61,427 bases of DNA from Terriglobales bacterium (GTDB taxonomy: Bacteria; Acidobacteriota; Terriglobia; Terriglobales; Acidobacteriaceae): positions 1 through 61,427 of the forward strand of contig JAMXLI010000006.1 of assembly GCA_024281115.1 (NCBI GenBank), read 5' to 3'. Both the position numbers and the translations under genes were made by a program. Shown one piece after another: positions 17,457 to 43,861 of the stretch (within the stretch, counting starts at the first letter, position 1; the number at the start of each line of letters is the position of its first letter). Below the pieces are notes generated by a model. It was not told the origin of the DNA, ran no database searches, and was given only the letters and a program-made list of their open reading frames with translations.

Positions 17457-17460
17457 GCGG

Positions 17461-18219
17461 TTACCGCTCCCGCTCCTGGTCGCGCGCGACCAGTTCATTG
17501 TCCACCGAGAAGGCGCCAAACACCTGGTTGGCGCGCATGCCGGCCACCTGCTTATCCAGGGTGTTGTCTACCATGCCGTACAGCGTCACATGGCCGCGGT
17601 CCACGATAATGCGAATGGGTGCCTGCGGGTCCATGGCGTAACGCGAGAGAACCGGGTCTCCGTAGATGGCGCGCAACGTGCGGATTCTCACGTCGTCGTC
17701 AAAGGGCGACGTGGGCAGCACCCGGACGCGGTCCACCACGTCCTTCACGCCTGGCTGGTTCTGCACGATGCTGAGAGCGGAGTCGCGGTCCGGCTGGTTC
17801 AGCACTTCTCCCGCAACCGTAACCACCCCGTTCTTCACATTCAATGCCAACGCGTTGAAGACGTGTCCGAAGCCGATGCGATCGTAGGCCAGCTTGCGTG
17901 CCAGCCGGTCCTGAAGCACCGCGTCGGGCACGGTTTGGCCGGCAACCTCAATCTCGTCCCTGACAGCAGCCACGTGCCCGCTGTGGCGAGCCTCGCGCTC
18001 CGCTTTGAGCTTGTCGGCGTAGCGCTCGACGGTGCCTTGCAGAGTGATCGCGCCGTCGTCCGCCGCCGCGCGCACATTCGTTAATTTCTTGTCCTGCTGC
18101 AACTTACGAGTGATTTTGGCGGCCAGCTCGGGCCCCGAAAACGGCTGCGTGTCGGCGAATGCGCCGGCCGCGGCCAGAGCGAGCGCCAGCCCAAAAAATA
18201 GTGTGATTTGTCGCTTCAT
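17461..18219 (-). CDS. Periplasmic BON-domain protein (three BON repeats)
   Basis: Signal peptide MKRQITLFFGLALALAAAGAFA. There are three repeats of the ...V.V.NGVVTL.G.V...... type. GAGGA lies 5 nt upstream of the ATG at 18219. Confidence 0.85.
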   Translation of the reverse strand: MKRQITLFFGLALALAAAGAFADTQPFSGPELAAKITRKLQQDKKLTNVRAAADDGAITLQGTVERYADKLKAEREARHSGHVAAVRDEIEVAGQTVPDAVLQDRLARKLAYDRIGFGHVFNALALNVKNGVVTVAGEVLNQPDRDSALSIVQNQPGVKDVVDRVRVLPTSPFDDDVRIRTLRAIYGDPVLSRYAMDPQAPIRIIVDRGHVTLYGMVDNTLDKQVAGMRANQVFGAFSVDNELVARDQERER

Positions 18220-21505: not shown

Positions 21506-21545
21506 CGGCGATGAGCGACCGAGCGCCGCAGCGGACGGGCCAGCG

Positions 21546-22424
21546 TCACGGCAAGCGCGGCGCTCCACATTGGGTGGGCGGGCACCGCGTCGGCGGCTGC
21601 GGTATGAAGATCGGGCCGATGAACCGCGGCGTGCCGTTCTGAGTGGTGCTGCCCACCACCGCTCCGCTCACCGCGCCTACCACCGCGATGCCGACCAGGG
21701 TGTGCAGCAGTGCATGCGACCCGGCCACCACACCCGCCGCCTCGCCGCCGATATTGGTGGCCGACATGCTCGCCTGCTGCACCCCGCGGGGTGTGGGCTG
21801 AACCGCCGCCGCAACCTCCGGCCCGACGTCCACCATCTGGCCGGCGCTAACGGTAAGCGTATTCGAAGCCGGTGAAGTGGCTGCGGTCCCTTGCGTGCCC
21901 GCCGTATTGCCGACGTTCTGCTGGTTCAGAACGCGCGACGCGCCCAGCGGGGTGACGCTCACCGTCCCGGTGTAGCAGATGACGCGCGTGCGGTCCGGCA
22001 TCACGTCCACGTAGAAATCGGTGCCGATCACGCCGATCACCGCATGGGGTGTGCGCACTTCGTATTTGCCGCCCGGCTGGGTGATCTTGACCACCTGGCT
22101 GCGAAGTTTGCCGAACCCGAGCTCCAGGGACGTCTGCTGCGACTTGTTGTCGTGCTGCACCACGCGCAGCTGGCTGTTGGAACCCACGCTCAGCATGGAA
22201 CCGTCGAGGAGGCCGACCCGCATGCGGCCGGCGTTCTCCGTTTTCAGCAAGTCGTTCCAGTCCACTTCCTCCTTCACCTTGGCGAGCCGGTCGTTGCGGG
22301 ACCCTTGCGGGATCAGCGCGTTGATCTGCCCCGCCTGCTGGGATGACCCGGACTGCGCCAGCAGGGAAGGCAAGGGAGAAAGCATCAGGGCAAGAACGAG
22401 AGACAGCAGACGCCTCAGGAACAT
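21546..22424 (-). CDS. FecR-domain secreted/anchored protein
   Basis: Signal peptide MFLRRLLSLVLALMLSPLPSLLA. FecR-like beta region (RMRVGLLDGSMLSVGSNSQLRVV...YEVRTPHAVIGVIGTDFYV). Gly/Ala-rich hydrophobic C-terminus. It lies directly upstream of the cyclase. Confidence 0.8.
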   Translation of the reverse strand: MFLRRLLSLVLALMLSPLPSLLAQSGSSQQAGQINALIPQGSRNDRLAKVKEEVDWNDLLKTENAGRMRVGLLDGSMLSVGSNSQLRVVQHDNKSQQTSLELGFGKLRSQVVKITQPGGKYEVRTPHAVIGVIGTDFYVDVMPDRTRVICYTGTVSVTPLGASRVLNQQNVGNTAGTQGTAATSPASNTLTVSAGQMVDVGPEVAAAVQPTPRGVQQASMSATNIGGEAAGVVAGSHALLHTLVGIAVVGAVSGAVVGSTTQNGTPRFIGPIFIPQPPTRCPPTQCGAPRLP

Positions 22425-22660
22425 GGTTCTCCTCGCATGCATGCAGGTGAGTGTCACGATTTTGTGGGGGATCGGGCGGAAAAGCAATTGTCCGCCAGGG
22501 CTCGTCCGGACGCGGCTTGACCAGCAGGGTGCTTGCGTGCTGCCGCCTGCGCGCCGCACCACCCGATGCACTAGACAGTCCTGCTGCCTCGCATAGACTG
22601 GTCGCAAGTTGATGCCGTCGCGACGCGGATGGGCGGTCGCGCAGCGAACCGGGAGGTGCG

Positions 22661-22855
22661 ATGTCAGTTAAAAAGGTGGTTCTCTACTTCGATCGGCAGG
22701 AAGATGCCCTGCACTTCACGCTCGCGGCCGGTTCCATGCTGGCAGCCGACCTGGCCTCCATCGGGCTGGAACAGCGGACCAGCGTGATCCAGGAAATGGG
22801 CCGCGCGTCGCGCATCAACTTTCACACCGAGGACGAGCCGGAACTAGTCGGATAA
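22661..22855 (+). CDS. Hypothetical small protein
   Basis: 64-aa ORF with GGGAGG upstream and no recognisable motif. Confidence 0.35.
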   Translation: MSVKKVVLYFDRQEDALHFTLAAGSMLAADLASIGLEQRTSVIQEMGRASRINFHTEDEPELVG

Positions 22856-22952
22856 GCTTCCGGCGCAGCCGCGTGGGCGTCGCACATCTACGCGCAGGTC
22901 CGCTCCTTGCTCGTTGCTGACAGCCACTCTCCCCGGCCGCTACCATGGCGGA

Positions 22953-23327
22953 ATGCACGATACGGGCAGCTCTCCTTTTTCTGCGCTGCGCGGGCACAAA
23001 TACCTCAGCCTGGCCAGCTTCCGCCGCAACGGCCAACCCGTCGATACCCCGGTATGGTTCGCGGAAGCGGACGGCAGGGTATACATCATGACGCGCAACG
23101 ATTCGGGGAAATACAAGCGCATCCGCAACAACCCGCGCGTGCGCGTCGCTCCCTGCACCATGCGCGGGCGGCGGCTGGGTCCGGAAGCGGAGGCGCGCGC
23201 CCGGGTGCTCGAGCGCGCGGATTTTGGGCGCGCCCGTGACCTTCTGGCGCGCAAGTACTGGCTGATGCAGCTTCCCTTCTTGTGGAGCCGGCACAACGTG
23301 TTTCTGGAACTGACGGCGGGCGGCTAG
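22953..23327 (+). CDS. PPOX-class (pyridoxamine 5'-phosphate oxidase-like) probable F420/FMN-binding protein
   Basis: YLSLASFRRNGQPVDTPVWFAEADGRVYIMTRNDSGKYKRIRNNPRVRVAPC is typical of the PPOX split-barrel family. ATG at 22953; an in-frame TTG at 22914 is also possible. Confidence 0.75.
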   Translation: MHDTGSSPFSALRGHKYLSLASFRRNGQPVDTPVWFAEADGRVYIMTRNDSGKYKRIRNNPRVRVAPCTMRGRRLGPEAEARARVLERADFGRARDLLARKYWLMQLPFLWSRHNVFLELTAGG

Positions 23328-23338
23328 CGGCCGGCAAC

Positions 23339-25627
23339 TCAGACGCCGGTCACCGCCGCCGCTGCCCACGAAGGCGCGTGCTGGTCGGCATCCACCACGG
23401 CGATGGTGGCGATGTGGACGATGTCCTCCACCTCGGCGCCGCGCGGCAGCACGTACACCGGTTTGGACATTCCCATCAGCACCGGCCCTATGGCCTCGGC
23501 GCCACCCGCGCGCATCAGCAGCTTGTAGGCGATGTTGGCCGAGTTCAGGTCGGGGAAGATGAGCACGTTGGCCGCCTGGCGCAGCGTGGAGAAGGGGTAA
23601 TCGCGCTGCACGATCTCCGGCACCAGCGCGGTGTCGGCCATCATTTCACCGTCCACCACCAGGTAGGGATCCACTTGCTTCACCAGCTCGGTGGCGCGCC
23701 GCACCTTCTCGCAACTGGGATGCTTGGTGCTGCCGAAGTTGGAAAACGACAGCATGGCCACCCGCGGCTCGACTTCGAAATTGCGGGCGGCGCGCGCGGC
23801 GCACAGCGCGATCTCCGCCAGGTCCTCCGCCGAGGGATCGATGTTCACGCTGCAATCGGCCAGGAACAGCAGGTCGCCGGTGCGGGTGATGAGAACGTAG
23901 AGGCCGGACACGCGGTGCGTGCCATCCTGGGTCTTGATGACTTCGAGCGCGGGGCGGATGGTGTCGGGATAATGCTGCGTAATGCCCGAGACTAGCGCCT
24001 CCGCGTCCCCCAGGTGCACCATCAGCGAACCGAAGTAGTTGGGATTGGCAATCAGTTGGTTGGCTTCCGCGAGGGTGACCCCGCGGCGTTGACGCAGGCG
24101 GAACAGTTCGCGAGCATACGCCTCGCGTTGGGGCGAGACGCCCGGGTCCACGATTTCCACGCCGCTAAGCGATAGCCCGAGTTCCTGGGCAAGAGCGCAG
24201 ATGGCACTCTCCTTGCCCAGCAGGACAGGCCGCGCAACCTGCTCCTCCACCAGCCGATGGGAGGCGCGCAGCACCTTTTCGTGCTGCCCCTCGGGGAAAA
24301 CCACGCGTTTGGGCGAAGCTTGCGCCTTGTGGATCATCATGCGCACGATCTCGCGCGCCTTGCCCAGCCGCGATTCCAGGCTTTCGCGGTACTGAACGAT
24401 CTCGACCGGCTCCTGCGCCACACCGCTTTCCATGGCGGCGCGCGCCACGGCCGACGCCTCCCACACCAGGACGCGCGCATCGAAGGGCTTGGGAATGATG
24501 TAGTCCGGGCCGAAGCGGAGCCGCGCGACCCCGTAGGCGCGGCACACCGAGTCGGGAACATCTTCTTTCGCCAGCGACGCCAAAGCGCGGGTGGCCGCCA
24601 GCTTCATCTCCGAGTTGATGGCGGTGGCGCGCACGTCGAGCGCCCCGCGAAAGATGAAGGGGAATCCCAGGACATTATTCACCTGGTTGGGATAATCGGA
24701 ACGGCCGGTGGCCATGATGAGATCGGGGCGCGCGCTGCGCGCCTCCTCAAACGCAATCTCCGGGTCCGGGTTTGCCATGGCAAAAACAATGGGCTTGGCC
24801 GCCATCGCCTTAATCATGGCGGGGGTGAAGGCGCCCTTCACCGAGCACCCGACCAGCACGTCGCATCCGCGCACCGCCTCTTCCAGCGTCCGCTGGTCGG
24901 TTGGCCGGGCAAAGCGCGCCTTGTAGGGATTCATGCCGGTGGTGCGGCCCTCGTAGATCACCCCTTGCGTATCCACCAAGGTGATGTTTTCTCGTCGCAC
25001 CCCCAACAGCACGTAATGCTCGGCGCAGGCGATGCCCGAAGCTCCCGCCCCATTGAACACCACCTTCAGCTTGCTGAGGTCCTTGCCCACAATTTCCACG
25101 GCGTTCAGAAGAGCAGCCCCGGAGATGATGGCGGTACCGTGCTGGTCATCATGGAAGACCGGGATCTTCATGGTGCGGCGCAGGGTCTCCTCGATGTAGA
25201 AGCACTCCGGTGCCTTGATGTCTTCCAGGTTGATGCCGCCGAACGTGGGTTCAAGAAGCTGGCAAAGGCGGATGACTTCGTCGGGGTTCTTGCTGTCTAT
25301 CTCGAGGTCGAAGACGTCAATGTCGGCGAACCGCTTGAAGAGCACGCCCTTGCCCTCCATGACGGGCTTGCCGGCGAGCGCCCCGATGTCGCCCAGGCCC
25401 AGCACGGCGGTGCCATTGCTGACCACCGCGACCAGGTTGCCCCGGGCCGTGTACTTGAAGGCATCGTGGGGATTGTCGCGAATTTCCAGGCAGGGCACCG
25501 CCACACCCGGCGTGTAGGCCAGGCTCAGTTCGCGTTGCGTGCGGCAGGGCTTGGTGGGCACAACCGAGATCTTTCCCGGGCGCGAGCCAAAGTGATAATC
25601 GAGGGTTTCCTGCTTGGTAATAGCCAT
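23339..25627 (-). CDS. maeB: NADP-dependent malic enzyme with C-terminal phosphotransacetylase-like domain
   Basis: 762 aa. Malic enzyme N-terminus ([32 protein letters not shown]) plus a PTA-like C-terminal half. Confidence 0.93.
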
Positions 25628-25863
25628 GGCGAGTTCCTCTCCGCGCCTGCGGGCGCAGGATGGCGCACCTCCTAGAATTGGCAATTGGTTCGCCAAGGCG
25701 CAAGGACCCAGTAGATGCTGAGAGAGCAGGAGTTACCATTCAGGGAAGGCGTGGAGGCGCTGCGGCGCTGCTGAATATCACGACCTCAAGTGGGGGAAAT
25801 CACCACGGCGGACGTGCCGCGGAGGGCTGTGGCGACTTTCAACAGCGCCCGGACAAGTTCTCT

Positions 25864-25892
25864 TTGACTTGCATTTTCAGCCAGTCTAAGAT
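25864..25892 (+). promoter_or_regulatory. Sigma70-like promoter candidate for small ORF A
   Basis: TTGACT (25864-69), a 17-nt spacer, then TAAGAT (25887-92). It lies 40 nt upstream of the ATG at 25932. Confidence 0.35.
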
Positions 25893-25931
25893 GCAGCCAC
25901 GTTATTTCCCATCAGTGAGGATGCCGTTCTA

Positions 25932-26096
25932 ATGCGTAACGTGTATGAAGTTCTGAGGGATAAAGAAGCCCAACTCCGCCAGGTCCAGGTTGAAGTCGAG
26001 GCGCTGCGCCTTGCTGCACCCCTGTTGGCCGATGAGGCCGACGGCCCGGAACTGGTGACCCGCGGCTCGCACAAGGCCGAAGCGAAAGGGCGCTAA
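25932..26096 (+). CDS. Small ORF A (54 aa), MRNxYExL family, hypothetical
   Basis: MRNVYEVLRDKEAQLRQVQVEVEALRLAAPLLADE.... It is too short for the ORF track. It is a paralogue of 26163..26351, and many differences between the two are synonymous. Confidence 0.6.
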   Translation: MRNVYEVLRDKEAQLRQVQVEVEALRLAAPLLADEADGPELVTRGSHKAEAKGR

Positions 26097-26162
26097 GCAG
26101 CGCCCGGTTACCCGGAAAATCAGAGGCCACTACGGCCCGGGCAGGAGGCGTTCGCAGTGCCT

Positions 26163-26351
26163 TCAGTGGGCGCCGGCGTAGTTGCGCCCGGGCAGGACCA
26201 CCAGGCGTGGCTCGGCCGCGGCGCCGGTCTGAGTGGCCAGGTCCGCATGTTCTCCCAGCAAAGGAGCGACGGCGCGCAGCGCCTCCACCTCTTTGCGGAC
26301 GCGTTGCAGCTGTTTTTCTTTCTCGTAGAGCAGTTCGTAAGCGTTGCGCAT
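26163..26351 (-). CDS. Small ORF B (62 aa), MRNxYExL family, hypothetical
   Basis: MRNAYELLYEKEKQLQRVRKEVEALRAVAPLLGEH.... About 20 of the first 33 residues are identical to ORF A. The frame stays open upstream to 26531 through the PESAWELAP repeats, so the start is uncertain. Confidence 0.6.
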   Translation of the reverse strand: MRNAYELLYEKEKQLQRVRKEVEALRAVAPLLGEHADLATQTGAAAEPRLVVLPGRNYAGAH

Positions 26352-26407
26352 GATAGTGATCGGCGGGCTGCTTGCCAGCCGAGCACGATTCTGGGTCCGC
26401 GACAGCG

Positions 26408-26505
26408 CCGGCGCCAGTTCCCAGGCTGATTCCGGCACCCCCCGCGGCACCGGCGCCAGTTCCCAGGCTGATTCCGGCCCGGCCGGCGGCACCGATTCCG
26501 GCACC
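26408..26505. repeat. 42-nt-period tandem repeat (2 full copies plus a partial third)
   Basis: CCGGCGCCAGTTCCCAGGCTGATTCCGGC occurs identically at 26408-26436 and 26450-26478. GATTCCGGCAC recurs at ~26494. Confidence 0.9.
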
Positions 26506-26729
26506 GCTCTCCGCTTTGTGACGCGTATCACATACCTCGGTGGGGAGGGTCACAGCACACAGCATGGTGAGGGCCGACACTAACCTCGTGTTCATGCGGG
26601 TGGCAGCGCCTTCCAGCAGCAGCCGGGACGTCGGCGGCCCGGAGACGCGCCAGCGGCTTGCAAGGGACACGATCTGCAGCTGGCGACGGGTGGGCTCGCG
26701 CCGCGGCTGCACGTCACACGGAGGTGTGC

Positions 26730-27449
26730 GTGCTCTCACCCTACGGTTTGGATATTGTTGAAAGCTGTCTCACGTGCAAGCTGCGCGCCGATCGCATCTT
26801 CTGCGATTTACCCGCCCCCGCACTGCAGAACCTGGAAAATATCAAGTACGCGGCTGCCTACCCCAAAGGCGCGGTGCTGTTCGTCGAGGGCCAGAGCCCG
26901 CGCGGGATTTTCATGCTGTGCAAGGGCCGGGTGAAGCTGTCGGTATGCTCGACCGACGGCAAAACCCTGATCCTGAAAATTGCCGAGCCGGGAGAGGTGC
27001 TGGGCTTGAGCGCCGCGATCTCCGGCAAGCCTTACGAGTTGACCGCCGAGACGGTGGACCCCTGCCAGGTGAATTTCATTAAACGCGAAGATTTTCTGCG
27101 CTTCCTGAGGGAGCATGCCGAAGCGTGCTTCCGGGTGGCCGAGCAGCTCAGCGAGAAATACAACAATGCCTGCCACGAAGTGCGCGCGCTGGGCCTGTCG
27201 CATTCCGCCGCGGAGAAGCTGGCCCGGCTGCTGCTGGAGTGGAGTTCCAAGAACGGCGAAGCCGCCAAGCAGGAGCCCCGGGTGAAGCTGGCGCTTACCC
27301 ACGAGGAGATCGCGCAGATGATCGGCACCTCACGCGAGACGGTGACGCGGCTGTTCGCCGATTTGAAAAAGCGGCAAGTCATCCAATCCAAGGGCTCCAC
27401 GCTGCTCATCCGGAACAAGGGGGCGCTGAAGTCCATCGCCGGCGCGTAA
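26730..27449 (+). CDS. Crp/Fnr family transcriptional regulator with N-terminal C-x2-C-x8-C motif
   Basis: cNMP-binding beta-roll plus HTH (THEEIAQMIGTSRETVTRLFADLKKRQVI). The N-terminus contains CLTCKLRADRIFC. A GTG at 26730 sits 5 nt after GGAGG; the track ORF begins at 26658. Confidence 0.85.
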   Translation: MLSPYGLDIVESCLTCKLRADRIFCDLPAPALQNLENIKYAAAYPKGAVLFVEGQSPRGIFMLCKGRVKLSVCSTDGKTLILKIAEPGEVLGLSAAISGKPYELTAETVDPCQVNFIKREDFLRFLREHAEACFRVAEQLSEKYNNACHEVRALGLSHSAAEKLARLLLEWSSKNGEAAKQEPRVKLALTHEEIAQMIGTSRETVTRLFADLKKRQVIQSKGSTLLIRNKGALKSIAGA

Positions 27450-27485
27450 AGCTTGCCGCCCCTGTGCGGGGTGTCACGCAAAACC

Positions 27486-27499
27486 GTGACTCGAGTCAC
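27486..27499. promoter_or_regulatory. CRP/FNR-type palindrome GTGA-N6-TCAC (site 1)
   Basis: GTGACTCGAGTCAC is a perfect 14-nt palindrome centred ~40 nt upstream of the ATG at 27533. An extra GTCAC half-site is at 27473-77. Confidence 0.5.
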
Positions 27500-27532
27500 T
27501 GCCGCGTTCCCGCCAGGGGGCTATCAAAGGGC

Positions 27533-28027
27533 ATGGAGCGCGCCACTATGAGCTGCTTCGATTGCTCGCTGCGTCCCGCGCGCACGTTTTGCGACCTGCC
27601 GGCAGATGCCCTGAAAGCCTTCGACTCGATCAAGAGCGCGTCGCTCTACGCTCGCGGCGCGACCTTGTTCCAGGAAGGGCGGCCTGCGCGGGGAGTTTTT
27701 CTGCTGTGCGATGGCCGGGCCAAGCTTACCGTGTGCTCTCCCAGCGGCAAGCGCCTGATTCTTCGCATCGCAGGGCCGGGCGAAATCCTGGGCTTGAGCG
27801 CGGTGCTGACGGGCGAGCCCTACGAGGTGACGGCGGAACTCCTGGAAACTTCCCAGGTAGCCTTCATAAAGCGCAAAGACCTGGTCCGCTTTCTCCGGCA
27901 ATACCGCGATGCCTGCCTGCAGGTCGTGCACGCGCTGAGCGCCGACCTGCACACCGCCTACGATCGGGTGCGCGCGGTCGGGCTGGCGCGCACGCGGCGG
28001 CCGCGAGTCGGCAGCCTGGTCCACTAG
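27533..28027 (+). CDS. Crp/Fnr paralogue truncated after the dimerisation helix: sensor domain only, no HTH
   Basis: 164 aa. It has the same C-x2-C-x8-C motif (CFDCSLRPARTFC) and beta-roll as the upstream gene. It ends at ...RVRAVGLARTRRPRVGSLVH*, where the paralogue continues into its HTH. Confidence 0.7.
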   Translation: MERATMSCFDCSLRPARTFCDLPADALKAFDSIKSASLYARGATLFQEGRPARGVFLLCDGRAKLTVCSPSGKRLILRIAGPGEILGLSAVLTGEPYEVTAELLETSQVAFIKRKDLVRFLRQYRDACLQVVHALSADLHTAYDRVRAVGLARTRRPRVGSLVH

Positions 28028-28134
28028 CGCTGTTGCCATCCGGCGGAGCGCGCTCACGCGGAAAATCGTAAACCGCCTGGCTTCCGCAGCCCCGTTTTGA
28101 AACGCCCACGCGCCGCTGCCGCGCACAAACCCAT

Positions 28135-28150
28135 CGTGATTTGAATCACG
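28135..28150. promoter_or_regulatory. CRP/FNR-type palindrome GTGA-N6-TCAC (site 2)
   Basis: CGTGATTTGAATCACG (14 of 16 positions palindromic), centred ~100 nt upstream of the cytochrome ATG at 28242. Confidence 0.5.
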
Positions 28151-28241
28151 TCCGCAGGTGAGAGGCCGCACTGCGCCCGTCGCAGGCCACCGGCAACAAT
28201 CAATCGTTCAGCAGGTGGCTGTCGGGGAGGGCGGGTTGCCC

Positions 28242-30311
28242 ATGAAAGACACCGCGGAAGGCGATGGCGCCGTACATCGCCCGGGATTGTGGAAACTGAC
28301 GCTGGCGGCAAGCCTGTTGCTGGTCGCATGGGTCGCCGCTCCGGCGCTGGCCGCGCCGCGGGTAAACCCAGTCCCGGCCAAGCTCACCAGCGCGGATTGT
28401 CTTGCCTGCCACAATGACGCCACCCTGAGCAAGGACGTGAATGGCAAGGCCGAGAGCCTGTACGTCAACGAAACGCAGTTTGCAGGTTCCATTCACGGCG
28501 TTCTCAGCTGCACCGACTGTCACGCGGATGTGAAGGCGGTCCCGCACGAGAGCGCGCCGGCGAAGCCCAATTGCAGCTCCTGTCACGCCGAGCAGCAAGC
28601 TTCCTACGATCACGGAATTCATGCGCAGGCGCTGAAGCAGGGAGATGGCAAGGCGGCGGGCTGCGTGGATTGCCACGGGAGCCCGCACGGCATCCTGGCC
28701 GCGTCCGACCCAAAATCGCAAGTGCATCGTTCCCGAATTCCCGCGACCTGCGGCTCCTGCCACGGGCAGAAGTTTGTGATGGCGGCGAGCGGCCACAGCT
28801 CGCAAACCTACGTCTCCTACCAGGAAAGCGTGCACGGCCGTGCGGTGGCGGCAGGTTCGAAAACGGCGGCCGTGTGCACCGATTGCCACAACGCGCACAA
28901 CATCCTGCGCGCCAGCGACCCGCAATCGCCGATCTTCAAGTTCAACGTGCCCGCCACCTGCGCCCGCTGCCACGGGACGGCAAAGGCGGAGTACGTGCAA
29001 AGCATCCATGGCCAGGCGGTGGCGCGCGGCAACTGGCAGGCGCCGGTGTGCACCGACTGCCACGGCATTCACTCCATCAAGTCTCATGTTGACCCGCAGT
29101 CCTCGGTGGCCGCCCAGGCCCTGGCCCGCACCACCTGCGCCCGTTGCCACGAGGGAGTGCGGCTGTCGCAAGAGTTCAGCATGCCCGACCGCCGGGCCAC
29201 TACCTATCTGGAGAGCTATCACGGCCTGGCGTCCAAGCTGGGTTCGAACGTGGTAGCCAATTGCGCCAGCTGCCATGGCGTGCACAACATCCTGCCTTCT
29301 TCCGACCCGCGTTCCACCATCAGCCGCGCGCACCTGGTGGAGACCTGCGGAAAATGCCACCCGGGCGTGACCGAGAAGTTCGCGCTGGGCAAGGTGCATG
29401 TGGACGACCCGCTCTCCGCCGACTTCAGCAGCGTGGCCGTGCGCTGGGTGCGGCAGGCCTACGTGGGCATGATCCTGGCGGTGATCGGCGCCATGCTGCT
29501 GCACAACTTCCTGATCTGGCGGCGCAAGGCAGTGGAACGCCGCCGCCAGACGCCGGACCGCGTGGTGGTCCGGATGAGCGGCAACCAGCGCGCGCAGCAC
29601 CTGGTGCTGCTGCTCAGCTTCTTCGTGCTGGTGATCACGGGATTCGCGCTCAAGTATCCGGAATCGTGGTTTGCCGCCGGCCTAGGCATGGGAGAGAAGG
29701 CGCGCGGCGTCCTGCACCGGGTGGCGGCTGCGGCCCTGATCGCCGCGGGCTGCTACCACGTCCTCTACCTTGCGATCACAGGAGAAGGACGCAAGCTGAT
29801 TCGCGCCCTGGTTCCAGTGTTGCACGATGCTCGCGACCTCAGGGACACGATGCGCTACTACCTGGACGGCGGCGTTGCCCGGCCGCGCTACGCGCGCTTC
29901 AGCTATGCGGAAAAAATGGAGTACTGGGCGCTGGTTTGGGGCATGCTGGTGATGGCCAGCACGGGTGTGATGTTGTGGGCCAAGGTCACGTTCGGCCACT
30001 TCCTGCCCCGCTGGTTGTTCGATGTGGCCACTGCCGTGCACTTTTATGAAGCCATTCTGGCGACCCTGGCCATTGTCGTCTGGCATTTCTACCAGGTGTT
30101 CTTCGATCCCGACGTGTACCCGATGAATTGGGCGTGGTTCGACGGCAAGATGTCGCTGCACCACTACCGCGAGGAGCACGCTCTCGATCCGGCCATCCCG
30201 CTTGCGGCCAGTCCCGCGGAGACGGTGAGCGTGGCTTCCGGCGACTCGCCGGAGAAAGAGGAAGAAGAAACGGGGGAGCAGGAGGAAGAACTGACTGCTT
30301 CCCGGCCCTGA
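28242..30311 (+). CDS. Inner-membrane fusion cytochrome: periplasmic 11-haem c domain plus FdnI/HydC-type b-cytochrome membrane domain (CbcL-like architecture)
   Basis: Signal peptide, then 11 CxxCH sites (CLACH, CTDCH, CSSCH, CVDCH, CGSCH, CTDCH, CARCH, CTDCH, CARCH, CASCH, CGKCH) with paired-CXXCH periodicity. It continues with ~5 TM helices carrying conserved His (QHLVLL, LHRVAA, AVHFYE, VWHFY) and an acidic tail. A GGGGAGG RBS precedes the ATG at 28242. Confidence 0.85.
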   Translation: MKDTAEGDGAVHRPGLWKLTLAASLLLVAWVAAPALAAPRVNPVPAKLTSADCLACHNDATLSKDVNGKAESLYVNETQFAGSIHGVLSCTDCHADVKAVPHESAPAKPNCSSCHAEQQASYDHGIHAQALKQGDGKAAGCVDCHGSPHGILAASDPKSQVHRSRIPATCGSCHGQKFVMAASGHSSQTYVSYQESVHGRAVAAGSKTAAVCTDCHNAHNILRASDPQSPIFKFNVPATCARCHGTAKAEYVQSIHGQAVARGNWQAPVCTDCHGIHSIKSHVDPQSSVAAQALARTTCARCHEGVRLSQEFSMPDRRATTYLESYHGLASKLGSNVVANCASCHGVHNILPSSDPRSTISRAHLVETCGKCHPGVTEKFALGKVHVDDPLSADFSSVAVRWVRQAYVGMILAVIGAMLLHNFLIWRRKAVERRRQTPDRVVVRMSGNQRAQHLVLLLSFFVLVITGFALKYPESWFAAGLGMGEKARGVLHRVAAAALIAAGCYHVLYLAITGEGRKLIRALVPVLHDARDLRDTMRYYLDGGVARPRYARFSYAEKMEYWALVWGMLVMASTGVMLWAKVTFGHFLPRWLFDVATAVHFYEAILATLAIVVWHFYQVFFDPDVYPMNWAWFDGKMSLHHYREEHALDPAIPLAASPAETVSVASGDSPEKEEEETGEQEEELTASRP

Positions 30312-30341
30312 GGCTTTGAGGCACAATTCACCCGGTCATCT

Positions 30342-31877
30342 ATGAACAACCCACACGACGCGCCGCCGGTTGGGGGAAATGGCAGGTTGAGGGCGCATTT
30401 GCGCCATCCGATCACCTTGATCGGCGCGGCCCTCGCCCTGGTCAGCCTGGCCAACATCCTCTTCCTGTTTCTGATTGACCTCTTTTCCGTCCAGTCGAGC
30501 CCGTACATCGGGATCCTGGCCTACATGGTGCTGCCGGCCTTCCTGGTCGTGGGACTCATCATGATGCCCATCGGCATGTGGCTGGACCGGCGCCAGCGCC
30601 GTCGCCTGGGCCGCACTTCCGAGGAAAGCGTTTATCCCCGGCTGGATTTGAACGATGCCGGTCAGCGCAGCGTGCTTGGCTTCTTTTTCGCCTTCGTGAT
30701 CGTTTTCGTCATGTTGAGCGCGGTGGGCAGCTATCGCGCCTACGAGTACACCGACTCGGTGCAGTTCTGCGGCCAGCTCTGCCACTCGGTGATGAACCCG
30801 GAGTTCACCGCGTACCAGCTCTCCCCGCACGCGCGCGTCGCCTGCGTGGACTGCCACGTGGGCTCGGGCGCGAACTGGTATGTTCGCTCCAAGCTTTCGG
30901 GGGCGCGCCAGGTTTACGCCACCGCCTTCAAGCGCTTTCCCCGGCCTATTCCCACCCCGGTCGAGAACCTGCGTCCGGCGCAGGAAACCTGCGAACAGTG
31001 CCACTGGCCCAAGAAGTTTCACGGGGCGCAGCTGAAGGTGATCACCCACTTCGGGAGCGACGAAAAGAACACGCCCCGGCAGATCCGGCTCCTCATCAAA
31101 ACCGGCGGCGGAGATCCCACCGTCGGCATGGTCGCGGGCATTCACTGGCACATGAACATCGCCAACGAGATCTCCTACGTCACCACCGATGCCCGGCGGC
31201 AGAACATCCCTTACGTCCGCCTAAAAGACCTGCAGGGACGGGTGACGGAGTACAGGGCCAAAGACGCCTCCCTGAGCCCCGCCCAACTGGAGCGGCTGCC
31301 GCACCGGCGCATGGATTGCGTGGACTGCCACAATCGCCCCACGCACATCTATGTTCCCCCGGACCGGGCGGTGGACGAATCGCTCTTGGCGCGGCGCATT
31401 GACCCGGAGTTGCCCTTCGTCAAGCAGCAGGCGGTCGCCGCGCTTACCGCCAGCTACAACACCACCGATGCCGCCATGCAGGGGATCGCGACCGCCCTGC
31501 GGAATTTTTACAGCTCCAAATATCCAGACCTGGAAAACCGGAAGGGGCTGGAACTGCGTAATGCCGTCGCCGAGGTACAGAGAATCTATCGCTCGACCAC
31601 GTTTCCGGAGATGAAGCTGGACTGGCGGACCCATCCCAACAACGTCGGGCATTTTTACTTTGCCGGCTGTTTCCGCTGCCACGATGGGCAGCACGTCAGC
31701 CAGGAAGGACGCGTGATCAGCAAGGACTGCGAGATTTGCCACACCGTTCTGGGACAGGAGGAGGGCGGGACGCCGATTACGTCGGTGAAGGGCATGGCCT
31801 TCCAACATCCGGTGGACCTGGGCGACATTTCGCAGGCCACCTGCAGCGACTGCCATACCGGGGGAGCCAGCCCCTAG
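30342..31877 (+). CDS. Membrane-anchored NapC/NirT-like multihaem cytochrome c (6 CxxCH + 1 CxxxCH)
   Basis: Three N-terminal TM helices. The NapC-like core is FCGQLCHSVM...ACVDCHV...SKLSGARQVY. Further sites are CEQCH, CVDCH, CFRCH, CEICH and CSDCH. Confidence 0.8.
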   Translation: MNNPHDAPPVGGNGRLRAHLRHPITLIGAALALVSLANILFLFLIDLFSVQSSPYIGILAYMVLPAFLVVGLIMMPIGMWLDRRQRRRLGRTSEESVYPRLDLNDAGQRSVLGFFFAFVIVFVMLSAVGSYRAYEYTDSVQFCGQLCHSVMNPEFTAYQLSPHARVACVDCHVGSGANWYVRSKLSGARQVYATAFKRFPRPIPTPVENLRPAQETCEQCHWPKKFHGAQLKVITHFGSDEKNTPRQIRLLIKTGGGDPTVGMVAGIHWHMNIANEISYVTTDARRQNIPYVRLKDLQGRVTEYRAKDASLSPAQLERLPHRRMDCVDCHNRPTHIYVPPDRAVDESLLARRIDPELPFVKQQAVAALTASYNTTDAAMQGIATALRNFYSSKYPDLENRKGLELRNAVAEVQRIYRSTTFPEMKLDWRTHPNNVGHFYFAGCFRCHDGQHVSQEGRVISKDCEICHTVLGQEEGGTPITSVKGMAFQHPVDLGDISQATCSDCHTGGASP

Positions 31878-31911
31878 GCGCCGGGCGCGGCCGGCTGCCG
31901 ACCGGCGGAAT

Positions 31912-31927
31912 TGTGATGGCCGTCACA
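31912..31927. promoter_or_regulatory. CRP-consensus palindrome TGTGA-N6-TCACA (site 3)
   Basis: TGTGATGGCCGTCACA, centred ~106 nt upstream of the ATG at 32026. Confidence 0.5.
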
Positions 31928-32025
31928 GTCGCCGGTGATAATCATCCTCGCGGCTCCGAGGCCTCCCTTCTATTTTGAAGGTGCGGGCGGAGGCTGCATT
32001 GTGGCCTGCCCGGGGAGGGTTGCAG

Positions 32026-33256
32026 ATGCCGCAGGGCAACGGTGCAGCGAGCAAGGCAACGAGCCAGTTCGTTCCCCGCCTGATTTTCTGGGAAGTTACC
32101 AAGGGCTGCAACCTGCGTTGCATTCACTGCCGCGCCAGCGCCACCGAGCTCAGTTCGCCCACCGACCTCCCCACCAGCACGGCGCTCGGCGTGATTGACC
32201 AGATCGCCTCTTTTGCCAGCCCGATCCTGGTGCTGAGCGGCGGCGAGCCGTTGTATCGCTCCGACATCTTCCAGCTGGCGCGCTACGCCACCGATCGCGG
32301 GTTGCGTGTGGCGCTGGCCACCAACGGCACCCTGGTCACGAAAGAAGTAGCGCGCATGATCGTGGACTCGGGCGTGCGCCGCGTTTCCATTAGCCTGGAC
32401 GGGGCGGACGCCGTTACCCACGACGCTTTCCGCGGCATTCCCGGCGCGTTCGAGGCGGCGGTCCAGGGTCTGCGCAACCTGCGCGAGCGCGGGATGTCGG
32501 TGCAGCATGACCATCGCGCGCCACAATGCCAGCCAGTTGCCCGACGTGCTGGAACTGGCGCGTACGCTGGGCGCTGACGCATTGCATACGTTCCTGCTCG
32601 TGCCGGTGGGCTGCGGGGTGGACATTGCCGCCGAGCAGATGGTGGCCCCGGAAGAGTACGAGGCCATGCTCCACTGGTTCTACGATCGCTCGCTGGAAGG
32701 CGGCATTGAGCTGAAGGCCACCTGCGCCCCGCACTATTTCCGCGTGGTGCGCCAGCGCCGGGCCGAGGAGCGCCGCGCCGGCGGAACCTATGGCCACACG
32801 GCTGTGACCGCGCCCGCCAACGGTTCCGGTGGCATCGGCCCGGTGGAGATAACCATGCCGGGCGCTACCGGGATCAATCTGCGACCCTCGCCGGCAGCGC
32901 ACAGCGGGCATCCTGGAGGGCACCCCGGCGGGATGAATGCCATGACCAAGGGCTGCCTGGCGGGCACCGGCGTGTGCTTCATCTCACACCAGGGCGAAAT
33001 TTATCCCTGCGGCTACCTGCCGGTGCTGGCGGGCAGCTTGCAGCAGCAGAGCTTCGCGGAGATCTGGCAGCACGCCGCCGTTTTTGAGCAGCTCCGCGAA
33101 ACCGACAACCTGGAAGGGAAATGCGGCTGCTGCGAGTTCAAGAATGTGTGCATGGGATGCCGGGCGCGCGCCTTCGCCGCCACCGGGAATTTCCTGGCGG
33201 AAGAGCCCTTCTGTGTGTACGAACCGCGTGCAAAGGCCGGCACGCGGGGAGTTTAA
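32026..33256 (+). pseudogene. Radical SAM/SPASM enzyme of the AhbC/AhbD/NirJ (haem/haem d1 maturation) type, split by a +1 frameshift near 32503-32509
   Basis: The N-terminal half (FWEVTKGCNLRCIHC; ORF 31975..32577) and the C-terminal SPASM half (TIARHN..., CLAGTGVCFISHQGEIYPCGY, GKCGCCEFKNVCMGCRARAF; ORF 32507..33256) are in adjacent frames. Length is 3n+1. GGGGAGGG RBS. Confidence 0.75.
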
Positions 33257-33336
33257 GGATCGCGGCAGCCCACGAGCCTCGATGAAATGGAAGGGCGCCG
33301 TCTGGCCAGCGCCCTCGCCAAATGTACTTCCGGCGC

Positions 33337-33684
33337 TCAGTGGCGGCGCTGGGTCTCGCGCAACACGGTAGAGAAGGACCTTCCGCCAAAACTGAACGTG
33401 CTGGCGACGCGCCCCGTTACTGCCACCTTGGCGCCCTTGCTGGGCACGCCGTAGTTCTCGCTGAGCACCCACATTCTGCCGGTACCGTCGTCCACCTGAA
33501 ACATGCCGGTGCCCAAAGCACCGAATGTGCTCACCACGTTGCCCGCGATGGTGACTTCCTTGTTGGCGTACTTGCCGGGATCGCGCTGAATGTCGGCGAT
33601 GCTTTTGCGCGGCGGACAGCCAGTTAACAACACCACGCACGCCATCAGCGATAACACGGCCAGGGCCGCTGCCTTTCTGCTCAT
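33337..33684 (-). CDS. Lipoprotein, OB-fold (BOF/YgiW-like) hypothetical
   Basis: Lipobox MSRKAAALAVLSLMACVVLLTGC. The pattern KEVTIAGNVV...FQVDDGTGRMWV...GAKVAVTGRV resembles bacterial OB-fold proteins. Confidence 0.6.
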   Translation of the reverse strand: MSRKAAALAVLSLMACVVLLTGCPPRKSIADIQRDPGKYANKEVTIAGNVVSTFGALGTGMFQVDDGTGRMWVLSENYGVPSKGAKVAVTGRVASTFSFGGRSFSTVLRETQRRH

Positions 33685-33829
33685 GAAACCTCCGATCGCG
33701 GGGAGCGCGCGTTCCTGCTGGTGGGCGGCTCCGCCGTTTCTGTATAACCCCGTCCCAGGAACTTTGATGCGGGATAGCGGGTGCATAAAAGGTCGCGGCC
33801 CAGCGGGAGGCGGGAGTAATCTGGTAGGG

Positions 33830-34018
33830 ATGCCGGACACCGTCGTCGTGAGCGAGTGGGATGCCGAGCTTTTTCACCAGCGCGTGCTCGAGTTGGAAAG
33901 GGAAGGTTATGTGGCGCGACGGGAAAGTTACCGCATTACGGCGGAGATGAATCCCGAGACGGGTCTCGTGAGCCACGTCCACAGCATGGAGTTGTGGCGG
34001 GAAAGCGACGCGGGCTAG
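33830..34018 (+). CDS. Hypothetical small protein
   Basis: 62 aa starting MPDTVVVSEWDAELFHQRVLELEREGYVARRES.... GGGAGG lies upstream. Its stop overlaps the convergent M16 stop within the palindrome CTAG (34015-34018). Confidence 0.4.
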   Translation: MPDTVVVSEWDAELFHQRVLELEREGYVARRESYRITAEMNPETGLVSHVHSMELWRESDAG

Positions 34019-35292
34019 CAGGCGAGCTGGTCGCGCGAGATTTTCAGCCCGTTCAAGTTGCCTAGAACGGTGACTGCAATCCACTCCTGGCGGAAGAATT
34101 CTTCGGCGATGCGCTTCAAGTCCGGGGCTTCGACCGCCTCGATGTTCTCGATCAGCTCATCCAATCCGGCGAAGCGGTCGAAATACATTTCCTGCCGCGC
34201 CAGGTTCGACATGCGCGAGGTGCTCGATTCCAGTCCCAGCATCAAGCTGCCCTTGAGCTGGTCCTTGGCGCGCCGCAATTCGTCGGCCGGCACCAGCTCG
34301 GTTTTCAGCTTGCGCAGCTCGGCGACGATGGACTGCACCACCTTGGGCGCGGATTCCTTCGAGGTTCCCGCGTAGATGGAGAGGCAGCCGGTATCGCGGT
34401 AGGGATTCAGGTCGCTGTAGATGGCATAGACCAGGCCCTGGCGCTCGCGCACGTTCTGGAAAAGCCGCGAACTCATCCCGCCGCCCAGCACCGTGTTCAG
34501 GACGTAGGAGGAATAGCGCTTCTCGTGGGCAATGGGGTAGGCGGGCACCCCGACGCAGATCTGCACCTGCTCGAGCGCCTTCTTGTTGCGCATGATGATG
34601 CGCGAATTAGTGCGCGGCGGAGCGGTGTGATAGCCGTTCTGCACCGGTTTGAGGTGCTGGAATTTTTCCGCCACCAGGTCCACAAATTGCTTGTGGTTCA
34701 GGTGGCCGGCGGCGCAGATGACCATGTTGCTGGGATTGAAGCGCTGGCCCCAATAATCGAAGATCACCGGCTGCTCGAAGCGGCGCACGGTTTCCTTGGT
34801 CCCCAGGATGGGCTTGCCCAGGGGATGGTCCTTCCAGAAGTTCTGGGTGAAGATCTCGTGGACGAGGTAGTCGGGATTGTCCTCATCCATCTTGATCTCC
34901 TCCAGGATCACGCTGCGCTCGCGGGTGATGTCCTTGGTCTCAAAGACCGGGTTCAGCACCAGGTCGGAGAGCACGTCCATGGCGATCGGCAGGTGGTCAT
35001 CCAAAACCTTGATGTTGAAGCAGATGGTCTCCTTGGCGGTAAAGGCGTCCATGTTGCCGCCGATCGAGTCCACCTGGCGCGCGATGTCTTCGGCGCTCCG
35101 GTGCTTGGTGCCCTTGAACACCATGTGCTCGACGAAGTGGGAGATGCCGTTCCAGTGGGGGTCTTCGTCGCGCGACCCGCTCTTGATCCAGATCCCGATG
35201 GAAACCGAGCGGATGTGCTGCATCTCCTCGCTGATGACAACCAGGCCGTTGGGCAAAACGGCGCGTTCGATATTGCGGACTTCCTGAACCAT
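34015..35292 (-). CDS. M16 family (pitrilysin/insulinase-like) zinc peptidase
   Basis: 425 aa with the inverted zincin motif HFVEHMVFKGT. Confidence 0.9.
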   Translation of the reverse strand: MVQEVRNIERAVLPNGLVVISEEMQHIRSVSIGIWIKSGSRDEDPHWNGISHFVEHMVFKGTKHRSAEDIARQVDSIGGNMDAFTAKETICFNIKVLDDHLPIAMDVLSDLVLNPVFETKDITRERSVILEEIKMDEDNPDYLVHEIFTQNFWKDHPLGKPILGTKETVRRFEQPVIFDYWGQRFNPSNMVICAAGHLNHKQFVDLVAEKFQHLKPVQNGYHTAPPRTNSRIIMRNKKALEQVQICVGVPAYPIAHEKRYSSYVLNTVLGGGMSSRLFQNVRERQGLVYAIYSDLNPYRDTGCLSIYAGTSKESAPKVVQSIVAELRKLKTELVPADELRRAKDQLKGSLMLGLESSTSRMSNLARQEMYFDRFAGLDELIENIEAVEAPDLKRIAEEFFRQEWIAVTVLGNLNGLKISRDQLAC

Positions 35293-41133: not shown

Positions 41134-41295
41134 TTCGAGGCGCGGGATCCATCCAGCCGCAGGCGTAAACAGAAAGCAAGCGGGTGCGGCGCGGCGAACA
41201 AGTGGTTCTTCGCTGCGTGTATCAGCCGTTCACCTGTGGAAAAAGACGCCGCTCCCGAACCTGAAACCCGAGAGTATCGTGCCCTGAGGAGCAGC

Positions 41296-42063
41296 ATGAA
41301 ATCGCAAAACTCAGTGTTCCGCTTCAAGCGTGGGGACCATACCTGTGTTTTCTACCACAAGCCCGACGACCTGCTCGGAATCCTGGAGCCCTATATCCTC
41401 GAAGGTTTGCGGCAAGGGGAGAAATGCTTTTGTGCGCAGACCGCGGCCATGGCGAAGCACCTCGAGGCGGGGCTGGAGCGCGCCGGAGTGGACGTGGCCC
41501 GGGAGAAGAAGCGCGGCGCATTGCAGATTATTTCGGAAAAAGAGACCTATTTCCCCCAGGGCAGGTTCGACTGCGCCCGATTAGTCCAGCTGCTGGAGCG
41601 CTCGATAGAACTGGCGGTCAAGGATGGTTTCAGCGGATTCAGAACTGCCGGGGAATTGCGGTGGGCTGCATCCGGGATGTGCGATTGCGACCAGCTGGTC
41701 GAGTACGAACAGATGGTCGAAGCATTGTTTCCGGAACGGGGCGCAGTGGGGATCTGCCAATACCCGCTAGACGCGTTCGCTCCCGAGAACTTGCAGCGCG
41801 TTCTCGAAGCGCATCGCATTGCCGTTTCCCAGACCATGGGCCAGGCCAAGCACTCCAGTTACTATGTTCGCCGCGGTAAGTTTGCCGCCGACATTGTTGC
41901 CGACCGCCACAATCCTGCCTCGCGTTACTACTACGTCGTTCAACCGCATGGAACTGCGGACATCATCGGCTGGGGTTTCGAAGACAGCTTTGAGGCGGCG
42001 ATGAGTTCGAGCGAGTGCACAATCGCCGATATGGAACGACACGGGCGCGTGCCTCTCTCCTAA
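41296..42063 (+). CDS. Stand-alone MEDS-domain protein
   Basis: GDHTCVFYHKPDDLLGILEPYILEGLRQGEKC...GFRTAGELRW...YEQMVEALF...GICQYPLDAF matches the MEDS pattern. An extra ~90-aa C-terminal region has no recognised family. Confidence 0.65.
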   Translation: MKSQNSVFRFKRGDHTCVFYHKPDDLLGILEPYILEGLRQGEKCFCAQTAAMAKHLEAGLERAGVDVAREKKRGALQIISEKETYFPQGRFDCARLVQLLERSIELAVKDGFSGFRTAGELRWAASGMCDCDQLVEYEQMVEALFPERGAVGICQYPLDAFAPENLQRVLEAHRIAVSQTMGQAKHSSYYVRRGKFAADIVADRHNPASRYYYVVQPHGTADIIGWGFEDSFEAAMSSSECTIADMERHGRVPLS

Positions 42064-42274
42064 TCCTCCAGTAATTTAAAGACCCACCAGGCACTGCTCC
42101 AGCCGTGCAGCTCATTCCGAGAAGTTCGGCAGCGCATCAATGAGCCGCTGGTTCGAAGGTGGATCCAGAGAGCGTGAGCGCAACCCCGGGATTGACACTG
42201 CACCAGAAGCAGAGCACAATGCCGTCTGCCGTAAGTGCAGCATCGGAGTGACTGCCTTGCTTCCTCTGCCCAGT

Positions 42275-42631: not shown

Positions 42632-42757
42632 CTGGAGCGACCGGGGGCGCCGCCGCGCGGTTTCCTTGTTGATCTTTCAGAGCTGGACCCTTGCGGTCTC
42701 GCGGGTACGTCTGCTGCGAACTGACGCGGTGGAACTTGTAAATAGGGGCGACGGCAA

Positions 42758-42827: not shown

Positions 42828-42828
42828 A

Positions 42829-43849: not shown

Positions 43850-43861
43850 CATCTGTATAGA

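Follow-up and report, generated by a model that had tools for sequence, protein, structure and literature searches.

A block of five units on one strand (26730-33256, +) was analysed in a contig of an uncultured Terriglobales bacterium (Acidobacteriota; assembly GCA_024281115.1, contig JAMXLI010000006.1), and the whole stretch of 61,427 bp that was analysed is referred to here as the window. With a probability put at about 0.6, the block, together with the intergenic boxes that begin at about 26.5 kb, is an oxygen-limitation regulon around one operon of two Geobacter-type quinol-oxidising inner-membrane cytochromes. An earlier note, made from the letters of this DNA, had described two quinol-dehydrogenase-type multihaem proteins behind a putative redox regulator and had likened them to the Imc and Cbc proteins of Geobacter, and the family features of both proteins support that comparison. 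Its five same-strand units are also borne out by the coordinates of the open reading frames (ORFs), which are as follows.

26730-27449 (+), Crp/Fnr regulator, named Crp1 here, 239 aa; PF00027 67 bits, PF13545 67 bits
27533-28027 (+), Crp/Fnr paralogue without a helix-turn-helix (HTH) domain, the sensor-only gene, 164 aa; PF00027 only, 70 bits
28242-30311 (+), predicted CbcL/MtoC/MtrH-type fusion, 689 aa; 11 CXXCH motifs, PF01292 45.9 bits
30342-31877 (+), predicted ImcH homologue, 511 aa; three transmembrane (TM) helices, CX3CH plus six CX2CH, PF03264
32026-33256 (+), ahbD-like radical SAM/SPASM gene, frameshifted; TIGR04545 the best model for both halves

The ImcH homologue

ImcH (GSU3259) of G. 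sulfurreducens is an inner-membrane seven-haem menaquinol oxidase required for high-potential extracellular acceptors, and by its published definition an ImcH is a protein of 495-519 aa in which three N-terminal TM helices adjoin an atypical CX3CH motif and six CX2CH motifs are present (PMC6295460). Judged by its sequence, the 511-aa protein of the window is an ImcH homologue, since it shows each of these features. Hydropathy peaks placed its TM helices at residues 27-45, 56-74 and 111-129, and those of G. sulfurreducens ImcH are at 13-35, 45-67 and 100-122 (Table S3, PMC6295460). The CX3CH motif (CGQLCH) was found at residue 143 and the CX2CH motifs at 168, 217, 326, 443, 463 and 501. The resulting spacings of 25, 49, 109, 117, 20 and 38 compare with 24, 49, 106, 117, 20 and 38 in GSU3259, and the ImcH of Koribacter versatilis, Acid345_2712, is similarly close to the window protein (24, 49, 108, 117, 20 and 39). 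GSU3259 has 507 aa and the CX3CH motif comes straight after the third TM helix in both proteins, the N-terminus being 11 residues longer in the window protein. PF03264 (NapC/NirT) matched residues 111-198 with 49.1 bits against a cutoff of 24.1. The initial description of a three-TM NapC/NirT-like protein with six CxxCH motifs and one CxxxCH motif thus holds in respect of hydropathy, motifs and family.

The pocket of haem 1 was compared by residue offsets. In GSU3259 this pocket comprises the distal ligand Q179 together with K173, E127 and Y188, and counted from the CX3CH His, K173 is at +36 and Q179 at +42. Lys and Gln stand at exactly these offsets in the window protein; by offsets alone, Asp takes the place of E127 and Phe that of Y188. 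Membership of the ImcH and CbcL groups rests here on published motif tables and residue offsets rather than on alignment to GSU3259 and GSU0274. For ImcH homologues outside Geobacter, the published identity to GSU3259 is 31.5-49%.

The only solved relative of the window protein, as of Geobacter ImcH, is NrfH (2j7a), which matched residues 133-232 with E=1.1e-7. The equivalog models for NrfH, NapC and TorC all scored far under their cutoffs on the window cytochromes. A well-characterised nitrite or sulfite reduction pathway, in which the earlier note had thought both proteins might turn out to belong, is therefore not where homology places them.

The genomic setting differs from that of GSU3259 in that the window gene immediately follows a cbcL-type gene, with a Crp/Fnr box ahead of the pair, and its host is an acidobacterium with no known phenotype of extracellular electron transfer. 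The imcH start codon is 30 nt past the cbcL stop codon and imcH has no box of its own, so co-transcription of the two genes is likely from their arrangement.

The CbcL/MtoC/MtrH-type fusion protein

The 689-aa protein starts with a signal anchor (residues 19-37), followed by 11 CXXCH motifs across residues 53-369 and by five C-terminal TM helices within residues 402-621, the latter located by a Kyte-Doolittle scan only. The C-terminal domain matched PF01292 (Ni_hydr_CYTB) with 45.9 bits against a cutoff of 30.1. In the alignment with FdnI (1kqf_C), four His residues fell at FdnI H18, H57, H155 and H169. From these motifs and matches, the protein is predicted to be of CbcL/MtoC/MtrH-type architecture with an FdnI/HydC-like dihaem cytochrome b domain. 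The fusion of 11 CxxCH sites to an FdnI/HydC-type b-cytochrome had been proposed beforehand, and both the PF01292 match and the retention of all four b-haem His residues agree with it. Together, the pair would hold 18 c-haem and two b-haem sites.

Members of the CbcL/MtoC/MtrH family have 3-23 CX2CH motifs and, in most cases, six TM helices. CbcL itself (GSU0274) has nine haem motifs, 619 aa and six TM helices, compared with 11 motifs, 689 aa and, by hydropathy, five helices here; the window protein also has an acidic C-terminal tail. In both proteins, a periplasmic multihaem domain precedes a membrane b-cytochrome, with a similar pattern of TM spacing. The 689-aa protein may be a parallel fusion rather than a CbcL orthologue.

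A second, split CbcL-like unit, consisting of a multihaem protein of about 703 aa and a separate cytochrome b of about 315 aa, was seen immediately upstream of the fused cbcL in several relatives (L004:4706-7709, and also L023, L038, L043, L051 and L073). The split form suggests that genes of this family have undergone fission or fusion.

Conservation of the cluster in related Terriglobales

Homologues of either cytochrome number in the thousands; the nearest are 60-79% identical and nearly all come from Terriglobales, Acidobacteriia and 'Ca. Sulfotelmatobacter' metagenome-assembled genomes (MAGs). More than 7900 homologues were found for the CbcL-type protein, the nearest being mostly from Terriglobales, and relatives of the ImcH protein were found in at least 594 GTDB species representatives.

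Synteny was examined in a sample of 84 non-redundant related Terriglobales loci. The cbcL gene is directly upstream of imcH in about 70 of the 84. Crp1 and the sensor-only gene adjoin the cluster in about 22, and ahbD (70-79% identical) follows directly downstream in about 33. A second clade has a regulator about 55% identical to Crp1 on the opposite strand, plus a more distant radical SAM gene. Lack of conservation in relatives, which would have spoken against the block as a module, was thus not what the survey found.

A full-length regulator and a paralogue without the DNA-binding domain

Crp1 consists of a sensor domain and an HTH_Crp_2 domain with the recognition helix SRETVTR. Cysteine conservation was read from an alignment of 23 Crp1 and 26 sensor-only orthologues, the latter picked from Crp1-query matches that covered 55-72% of Crp1 and then extracted. 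Eight Cys residues of Crp1 are kept in its 23 orthologues, and six of these eight are kept in the sensor-only paralogue, where the equivalent of FNR C122 is absent. The shared N-terminal C-x2-C-x8-C motif (CLTCKLRADRIFC and CFDCSLRPARTFC in the Crp1/sensor-only pair) and the beta-roll cysteines (LCKG..SVC and LCDG..TVC) were all present in the sequences as first reported. Crp1 orthologues are 83-87% identical across species in which ImcH is just 57-68% identical, which indicates that Crp1 is under strong constraint.

FNR of E. coli is a [4Fe-4S] oxygen-sensing Crp/Fnr activator with the four Cys ligands C20, C23, C29 and C122. Against its sequence, C13, C16 and C113 of Crp1 align with C20, C23 and C122; the third Cys of the N-terminus comes three residues later, giving C-x2-C-x8-C in place of C-x2-C-x5-C. 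The DNA-reading side departs from FNR further. The helix has R-E..R rather than E..SR, and the operator is TGTGA-N6-TCACA rather than TTGAT-N4-ATCAA. Against the sequence of E. coli CRP, SRETVTR aligns with SRETVGR and has the same three contact residues (R180-E181..R185), whereas the cAMP-binding R82 and S83 are replaced by Tyr and Glu. The match to the TGTGA-reading helix of CRP would explain the TGTGA-type operator. Crp1 is best described as FNR-like in its predicted sensing and CRP-like in its predicted DNA reading, without satisfying the full definition of either subgroup. The apparent regulon resembles that of FNR in containing anaerobic functions, among them oxygen-independent haem synthesis, which parallels the control of hemN by FNR/FixK. 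Unlike FNR, Crp1 is paired with a conserved paralogue that has no HTH.

Two tandem Crp/Fnr paralogues had been reported at this position. The tandem order and the shared cysteines stand; the second protein, however, has PF00027 alone and no HTH. Its ORF ends after the C-helix and the other frames give no continuation. The 26 extracted orthologues share this end point, and all 25 cluster-adjacent ones have 159-181 aa and PF00027 only; in relatives, a PF00027-only gene of 164-168 aa comes after the regulator gene. More widely, 1215 relatives were found at E<=1e-10; each of the top 120 has a length of 159-181 aa and PF00027 only. A truncated pseudogene was considered and rejected, given this conserved family of 159-181 aa proteins. 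From the domain content, only the full-length Crp1 of the two paralogues can be expected to bind DNA. The sensor-only family is widespread, and genome annotations label its members as transcription factors.

Upstream of the Crp/Fnr pair, at a distance of 4-7 kb, are genes for a CHASE2 adenylate/guanylate cyclase of 840 aa (19145-21667, -) and a FecR-domain protein. Control of Crp1 by cAMP from this cyclase was considered and rejected: the cyclase was not seen among the cluster-flanking genes of three more distant relatives with fully listed neighbourhoods, and the Arg and Ser that bind cAMP are gone. A functional link between cyclase and Crp1 is unlikely.

GTGA-N6-TCAC boxes and the extent of the regulon

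The sequence GTGA-N6-TCAC occurs exactly four times in the window, always in the intergenic regions of the block, against 0.77 occurrences expected; none of 100 shuffles reached four. The positions are as follows.

26517-26532 (+), box 1, TGTGACGCGTATCACA, upstream of crp; GTGA-N6-TCAC at 26518, perfect match
27486-27499 (+), box 2, GTGACTCGAGTCAC, a perfect 14-bp palindrome upstream of the sensor-only gene
28136-28149 (+), box 3, GTGATTTGAATCAC, 93 nt before the cbcL-like start codon, perfect match
31913-31926 (+), box 4, GTGATGGCCGTCAC, TGTGA...TCACA with its flanks, about 100 nt upstream of ahbD

The palindromes had been counted before three units; there are instead four, namely crp, the sensor-only gene, cbcL-imcH and ahbD. 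The longer form TGTGA-N6-TCACA is perfect in two of the four boxes. Two boxes have a weaker partner at a distance of 22 nt, which for box 1 lies downstream (26539-26554, two mismatches) and for box 2 upstream (27463-27478).

The related loci contain 358 perfect boxes in 1.57 Mb, compared with about 20 by the expected rate of the window (0.77 per 61 kb), and 213 of the 358 are found no more than 350 nt ahead of a block gene. In 60 box pairs the distance is exactly 22 nt. Of the related ahbD copies, 33 of 33 are preceded by a box (34 of 34 with the window copy), 106-184 nt before the CNLRC motif. Before the sensor-only gene, a box was found for 24 of 25 orthologues, its centre 62-72 nt ahead of the first conserved Cys codon (61.5 nt for box 2 of the window). 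Given this distance, the box would lie about 35-45 nt before the start codon, a class II-like geometry.

Beyond the block genes, boxes precede genes for pyruvate:ferredoxin oxidoreductase (PFOR) in 15 species, a Pat-like acyl-CoA synthetase/GNAT protein in 10, TonB in six and a universal stress protein (Usp) in three. An oxygen-limitation regulon fits the box-controlled PFOR, Usp and ScdA/hemerythrin (the last in the relative described below) and the oxygen-independent AhbD. It also fits the universal control of ahbD by boxes, given the haem needed for 18 c-haem and two b-haem sites.

Several further boxes were recorded in relatives. A conserved 137-aa Cys-rich protein with no family match is encoded near the cluster in 18 loci (for example L025:5203-5616, -) and is box-preceded in 12 species. 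In one relative (L001), boxes lie between ahbD and a divergent operon for a Rieske protein, a cytochrome b and a 456-aa multihaem cytochrome c (14597-17520, -). The same relative has a box before a gene for ScdA/hemerythrin, associated with iron-centre repair (19933-20664, +), which hints that the box regulon also responds to nitric oxide (NO) or nitrosative stress.

The ahbD gene and its frameshift

The ahbD gene is split between two frames, 32026-32577 and 32507-33256, of which the second starts at an in-frame ATG. By tblastn and DNA alignment, a 5-nt deletion (ATCAA) was located between 32505 and 32506 relative to the intact 426-aa orthologue (...SVQINMTIARHN...) of a 79%-related forest-soil contig. 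TIGR04545 was the best model for the two halves, with 192 and 264 bits. On intact orthologues it scored 481.5 and 469.4 bits and led by more than 100 bits, the next model reaching 364 bits; an insert of about 60 residues ahead of the SPASM domain keeps these values just below the equivalog cutoff of 500. The CNLRCIHC radical SAM motif and the Radical_SAM and SPASM domains are present. The proposed AhbC/AhbD/NirJ-type radical SAM/SPASM gene can thus be narrowed to an AhbD-like one with respect to its domains, although its frame is broken. Other ahb genes were not found near ahbD in the window. AhbD is an oxygen-independent coproheme decarboxylase that occurs in coproporphyrin-pathway organisms lacking the other Ahb enzymes (PMC13564367).

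The same deletion is present in a MAG contig (L007; GCA_051985295.1, JBPYEN010000772.1), which over its whole 15.6 kb is 99.78% identical to positions 19145-34708 of the window, with 32 mismatches. A random assembly error is unlikely, as the lesion is 5 nt long, is not a homopolymer slip and is shared by a contig with 32 differences. Because the deletion is common to a separate MAG contig, the lesion looks real for the population. Judging from the broken frame, the AhbD branch is probably either inactive in this lineage or supplied from elsewhere in the genome.

The split of ahbD in two closely related assemblies might mark the whole block as a decaying remnant, a disused module in the source organism. 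This is improbable: the reading frames of crp, the sensor-only gene, cbcL and imcH are unbroken, the encoded proteins share 99-100% identity across the two assemblies with all motifs kept, and all four boxes are perfect. The deletion is the one visible lesion, and the downstream half of ahbD still begins at an in-frame ATG.

Additional cytochromes in relatives and the route of electrons

A 110-aa class-I monohaem cytochrome c (PF13442; c6/CcoP-like), of which the window has no copy, is encoded in 31 of the 84 loci, usually immediately upstream of cbcL (for example L029:7567-7899), and is box-preceded in 24 species. Its place before cbcL and its boxes speak for a reading in which the module serves periplasmic or micro-oxic respiration as a quinol:cytochrome c oxidoreductase, rather than extracellular electron transfer. 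In that case, ImcH and CbcL would reduce the class-I cytochrome c as a soluble carrier, and this would pass the electrons to an enzyme encoded elsewhere (a high-affinity oxidase, an N-oxide reductase or a peroxidase), much as in micro-oxic regulons of the FixK/FnrL type. The NrfH-like quinol site of ImcH points the same way, as does the relative in which the Rieske/cytochrome b/multihaem c operon and the ScdA/hemerythrin gene for repair of NO damage stand under the same boxes. Set against this, oxidase or N-oxide reductase genes were found neither in the window nor among the listed genes of the three fully listed relatives, the NrfH, NapC and TorC models scored far under their cutoffs, and PFOR under box control suggests complete anoxia and not micro-oxia. 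Moreover, the sole genetic data on ImcH and CbcL concern extracellular acceptors (PMC6295460). Overall, respiration of this kind is considered unlikely.

In five 'Sulfotelmatobacter'-like relatives, a protein of 469-515 aa is encoded beside cytochrome c, cbcL and imcH (L030:5524-6933, -; L039:4295-5842, -; L032, L038 and L060). It has a signal peptide, one N-terminal CXXCH and a long, apparently beta-barrel-like region with an aromatic end (...IIF, ...FVY), with no match in Pfam or NCBIfam. It is possibly a Cyc2-like cytochrome-porin fusion and, as such, could be the outer-membrane end of the pathway. A 130-aa protein of the relatives likewise gave no match in Pfam or NCBIfam.

The putative Cyc2-like fusion, read from its sequence pattern only, would also suit a module running in reverse. 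Fe(II) or reduced humics would then supply electrons by way of an outer-membrane cytochrome-porin and a periplasmic cytochrome c, and the CbcL/MtoC-type protein would reduce quinone. Homologues of CbcL/MtoC/MtrH do occur in Fe(III) reducers and Fe(II) oxidisers alike (PMC6295460), and MtoC has been proposed as a quinone reducer in Fe(II) oxidisers. However, quinol oxidation is the one role in which ImcH has been implicated to date (PMC6295460), an FNR-type anaerobic switch that co-regulates PFOR suits the need for an electron sink and not for a donor, and the Cyc2-like genes are present in just five of the 84 loci and not in the window. Electron uptake is thus very improbable.

Proposed mechanism

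The genes present, their family features, their conservation and the box statistics are observed; from these we infer as follows which signal acts on the proposed oxygen-limitation regulon, in which direction it is regulated, how electrons travel past the inner membrane and what the paralogue does. Crp1 would carry an oxygen-labile (or NO-labile) Fe-S cluster on its FNR-like Cys set. When oxygen is scarce, it would dimerise and bind the boxes through its CRP-type R-E..R helix, often as two dimers 22 nt apart, and the box-bound protein would activate cbcL-imcH. ImcH and CbcL would then oxidise menaquinol and pass the electrons to periplasmic carriers and on to an acceptor, outside the cell or in the periplasm, for which the window has no gene; Fe(III) or humic substances are the leading candidates. 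In Geobacter, ImcH serves high-redox-potential acceptors and CbcL low-potential ones (PMC6295460). AhbD, co-induced with PFOR in relatives, would make haem b from coproheme without oxygen for the haem-rich pair.

The box-controlled HTH-less paralogue would most likely modulate Crp1 through its kept dimerisation helix, either in a feedback by non-productive heterodimers or as a second sensory input. A bolder and rather unlikely reading is that it acts as a new kind of partner-switch for a Crp/Fnr regulator, forming DNA-binding-incompetent heterodimers or bringing in a second signal (NO, redox), so that a two-input gate would control ImcH/CbcL. The gated module would then be the long-sought means by which abundant 'aerobic' soil Terriglobales offload electrons to Fe(III) or humics under anoxia.

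Several observations weigh against this account. The fourth FNR ligand, C29, has no aligned Cys in Crp1 (x8, not x5), and Crp1 is overall nearer to the CRP/GlxR group (best PDB match 1e-19) than to FNR (3e-7), so Fe-S binding by Crp1 is only putative. A perfect box lies within 350 nt upstream of only 32 of 70 cbcL genes and eight of 21 crp genes. With ahbD broken in the window, the regulon is not intact in the source organism. Acceptor-side components (a periplasmic or outer-membrane cytochrome, a porin or a reductase) were not found in the window, and class-I monohaem cytochromes usually feed oxidases or N-oxide reductases, not extracellular acceptors. Finally, the direction and destination of electron flow were inferred by analogy alone.

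Relation to earlier work

Terriglobales are among the most abundant bacteria of soil and peat and are cultured as aerobes. If the regulon operates as proposed, abundant 'aerobic' soil Terriglobales would gain a respiratory route without oxygen during anoxia. Few genomic markers of extracellular electron transfer are rated as highly as ImcH and CbcL (bioRxiv 10.1101/2025.11.06.686851). Acidobacteriia have been proposed as the dominant Fe(III) reducers of soil, and a metagenomic study has claimed for them a dominant share of the Fe(III)-reduction genes in soil (PMC7980381). An oxygen-responsive ImcH/CbcL regulon would give such claims a testable mechanism. A regulator that joins FNR-type cysteines to CRP-type DNA reading would be an experimental handle, and the operator GTGA-N6-TCAC, often doubled at 22 nt, a sharply defined one.

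Levar et al. 2014 already recorded ImcH homologues in Acidobacteria, and a table of 2018 contains 19 ImcH and only two CbcL homologues (PMC6295460). With only two acidobacterial CbcL homologues in it, the 2018 survey largely missed the CbcL-type clade described here. The view that such a module is little characterised in Acidobacteriota is fair for the operon and its regulation, but it does not extend to the ImcH homologues, which were on record by 2014 and 2018. The literature searched gave no account of a cbcL-imcH operon, a GTGA-N6-TCAC regulon, an FNR/CRP hybrid, an HTH-less family or a link to ahbD. The identifiers ACP_0476, Acid345_2712 and Acid_0432 were not found in it, and ImcH did not occur together with a Terriglobia-level name among the 25 best-ranked matches. 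The cytochromes themselves are thus already known, and the operon and its regulation appear undescribed.

Surroundings of the block and other features of the window

The block has housekeeping genes on either side, with a malic enzyme gene upstream and genes for an M16 peptidase and RlmN downstream. Pfam annotation of about 40 window ORFs gave, outside the block, housekeeping functions only (ilv genes, transporters, outer-membrane beta-barrels, the CHASE2 cyclase and an ABC/MacB system). It revealed no ccm genes, terminal reductase or porin-cytochrome, in agreement with the earlier note, which had reported that the window contains no terminal reductase, outer-membrane cytochrome/porin or ccm genes. 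CxxCH motifs were searched for in window ORFs of at least 90 aa that passed a coding-composition filter, and none was found outside the block.

A scan for sigma-70 promoters and intrinsic terminators across 26300-33500 gave counts not above those of shuffles and was uninformative on transcript boundaries. Rfam, applied to the whole window, found no riboswitch or leader in the block; its sole match was a tRNA (43516-43589).

A 42-bp tandem repeat (2.1 copies, 91% match) lies at 26408-26494, immediately upstream of box 1. It is overlapped by a minus-strand ORF (26163-26531, 122 aa) that is divergent from crp, encodes a repeated PESAWELAP motif and has no match in Pfam or NCBIfam. Box 1 could also serve this ORF. 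Directly downstream of ahbD, a further minus-strand ORF (33337-33840), 167 aa as listed and 115 aa as called in relatives, also has no match in Pfam or NCBIfam; its position is kept in two relatives (L007 and L008).

The region 42000-50000 has a G+C content of 0.58, compared with about 0.64, and contains the tRNA. It holds a large CarboxypepD_reg/OMP beta-barrel protein (43930-47142) and two ORFs with no family match (47452-48435 and 48739-49968), with a MEDS-domain protein at its flank (41236-42063). This segment may have been acquired horizontally.

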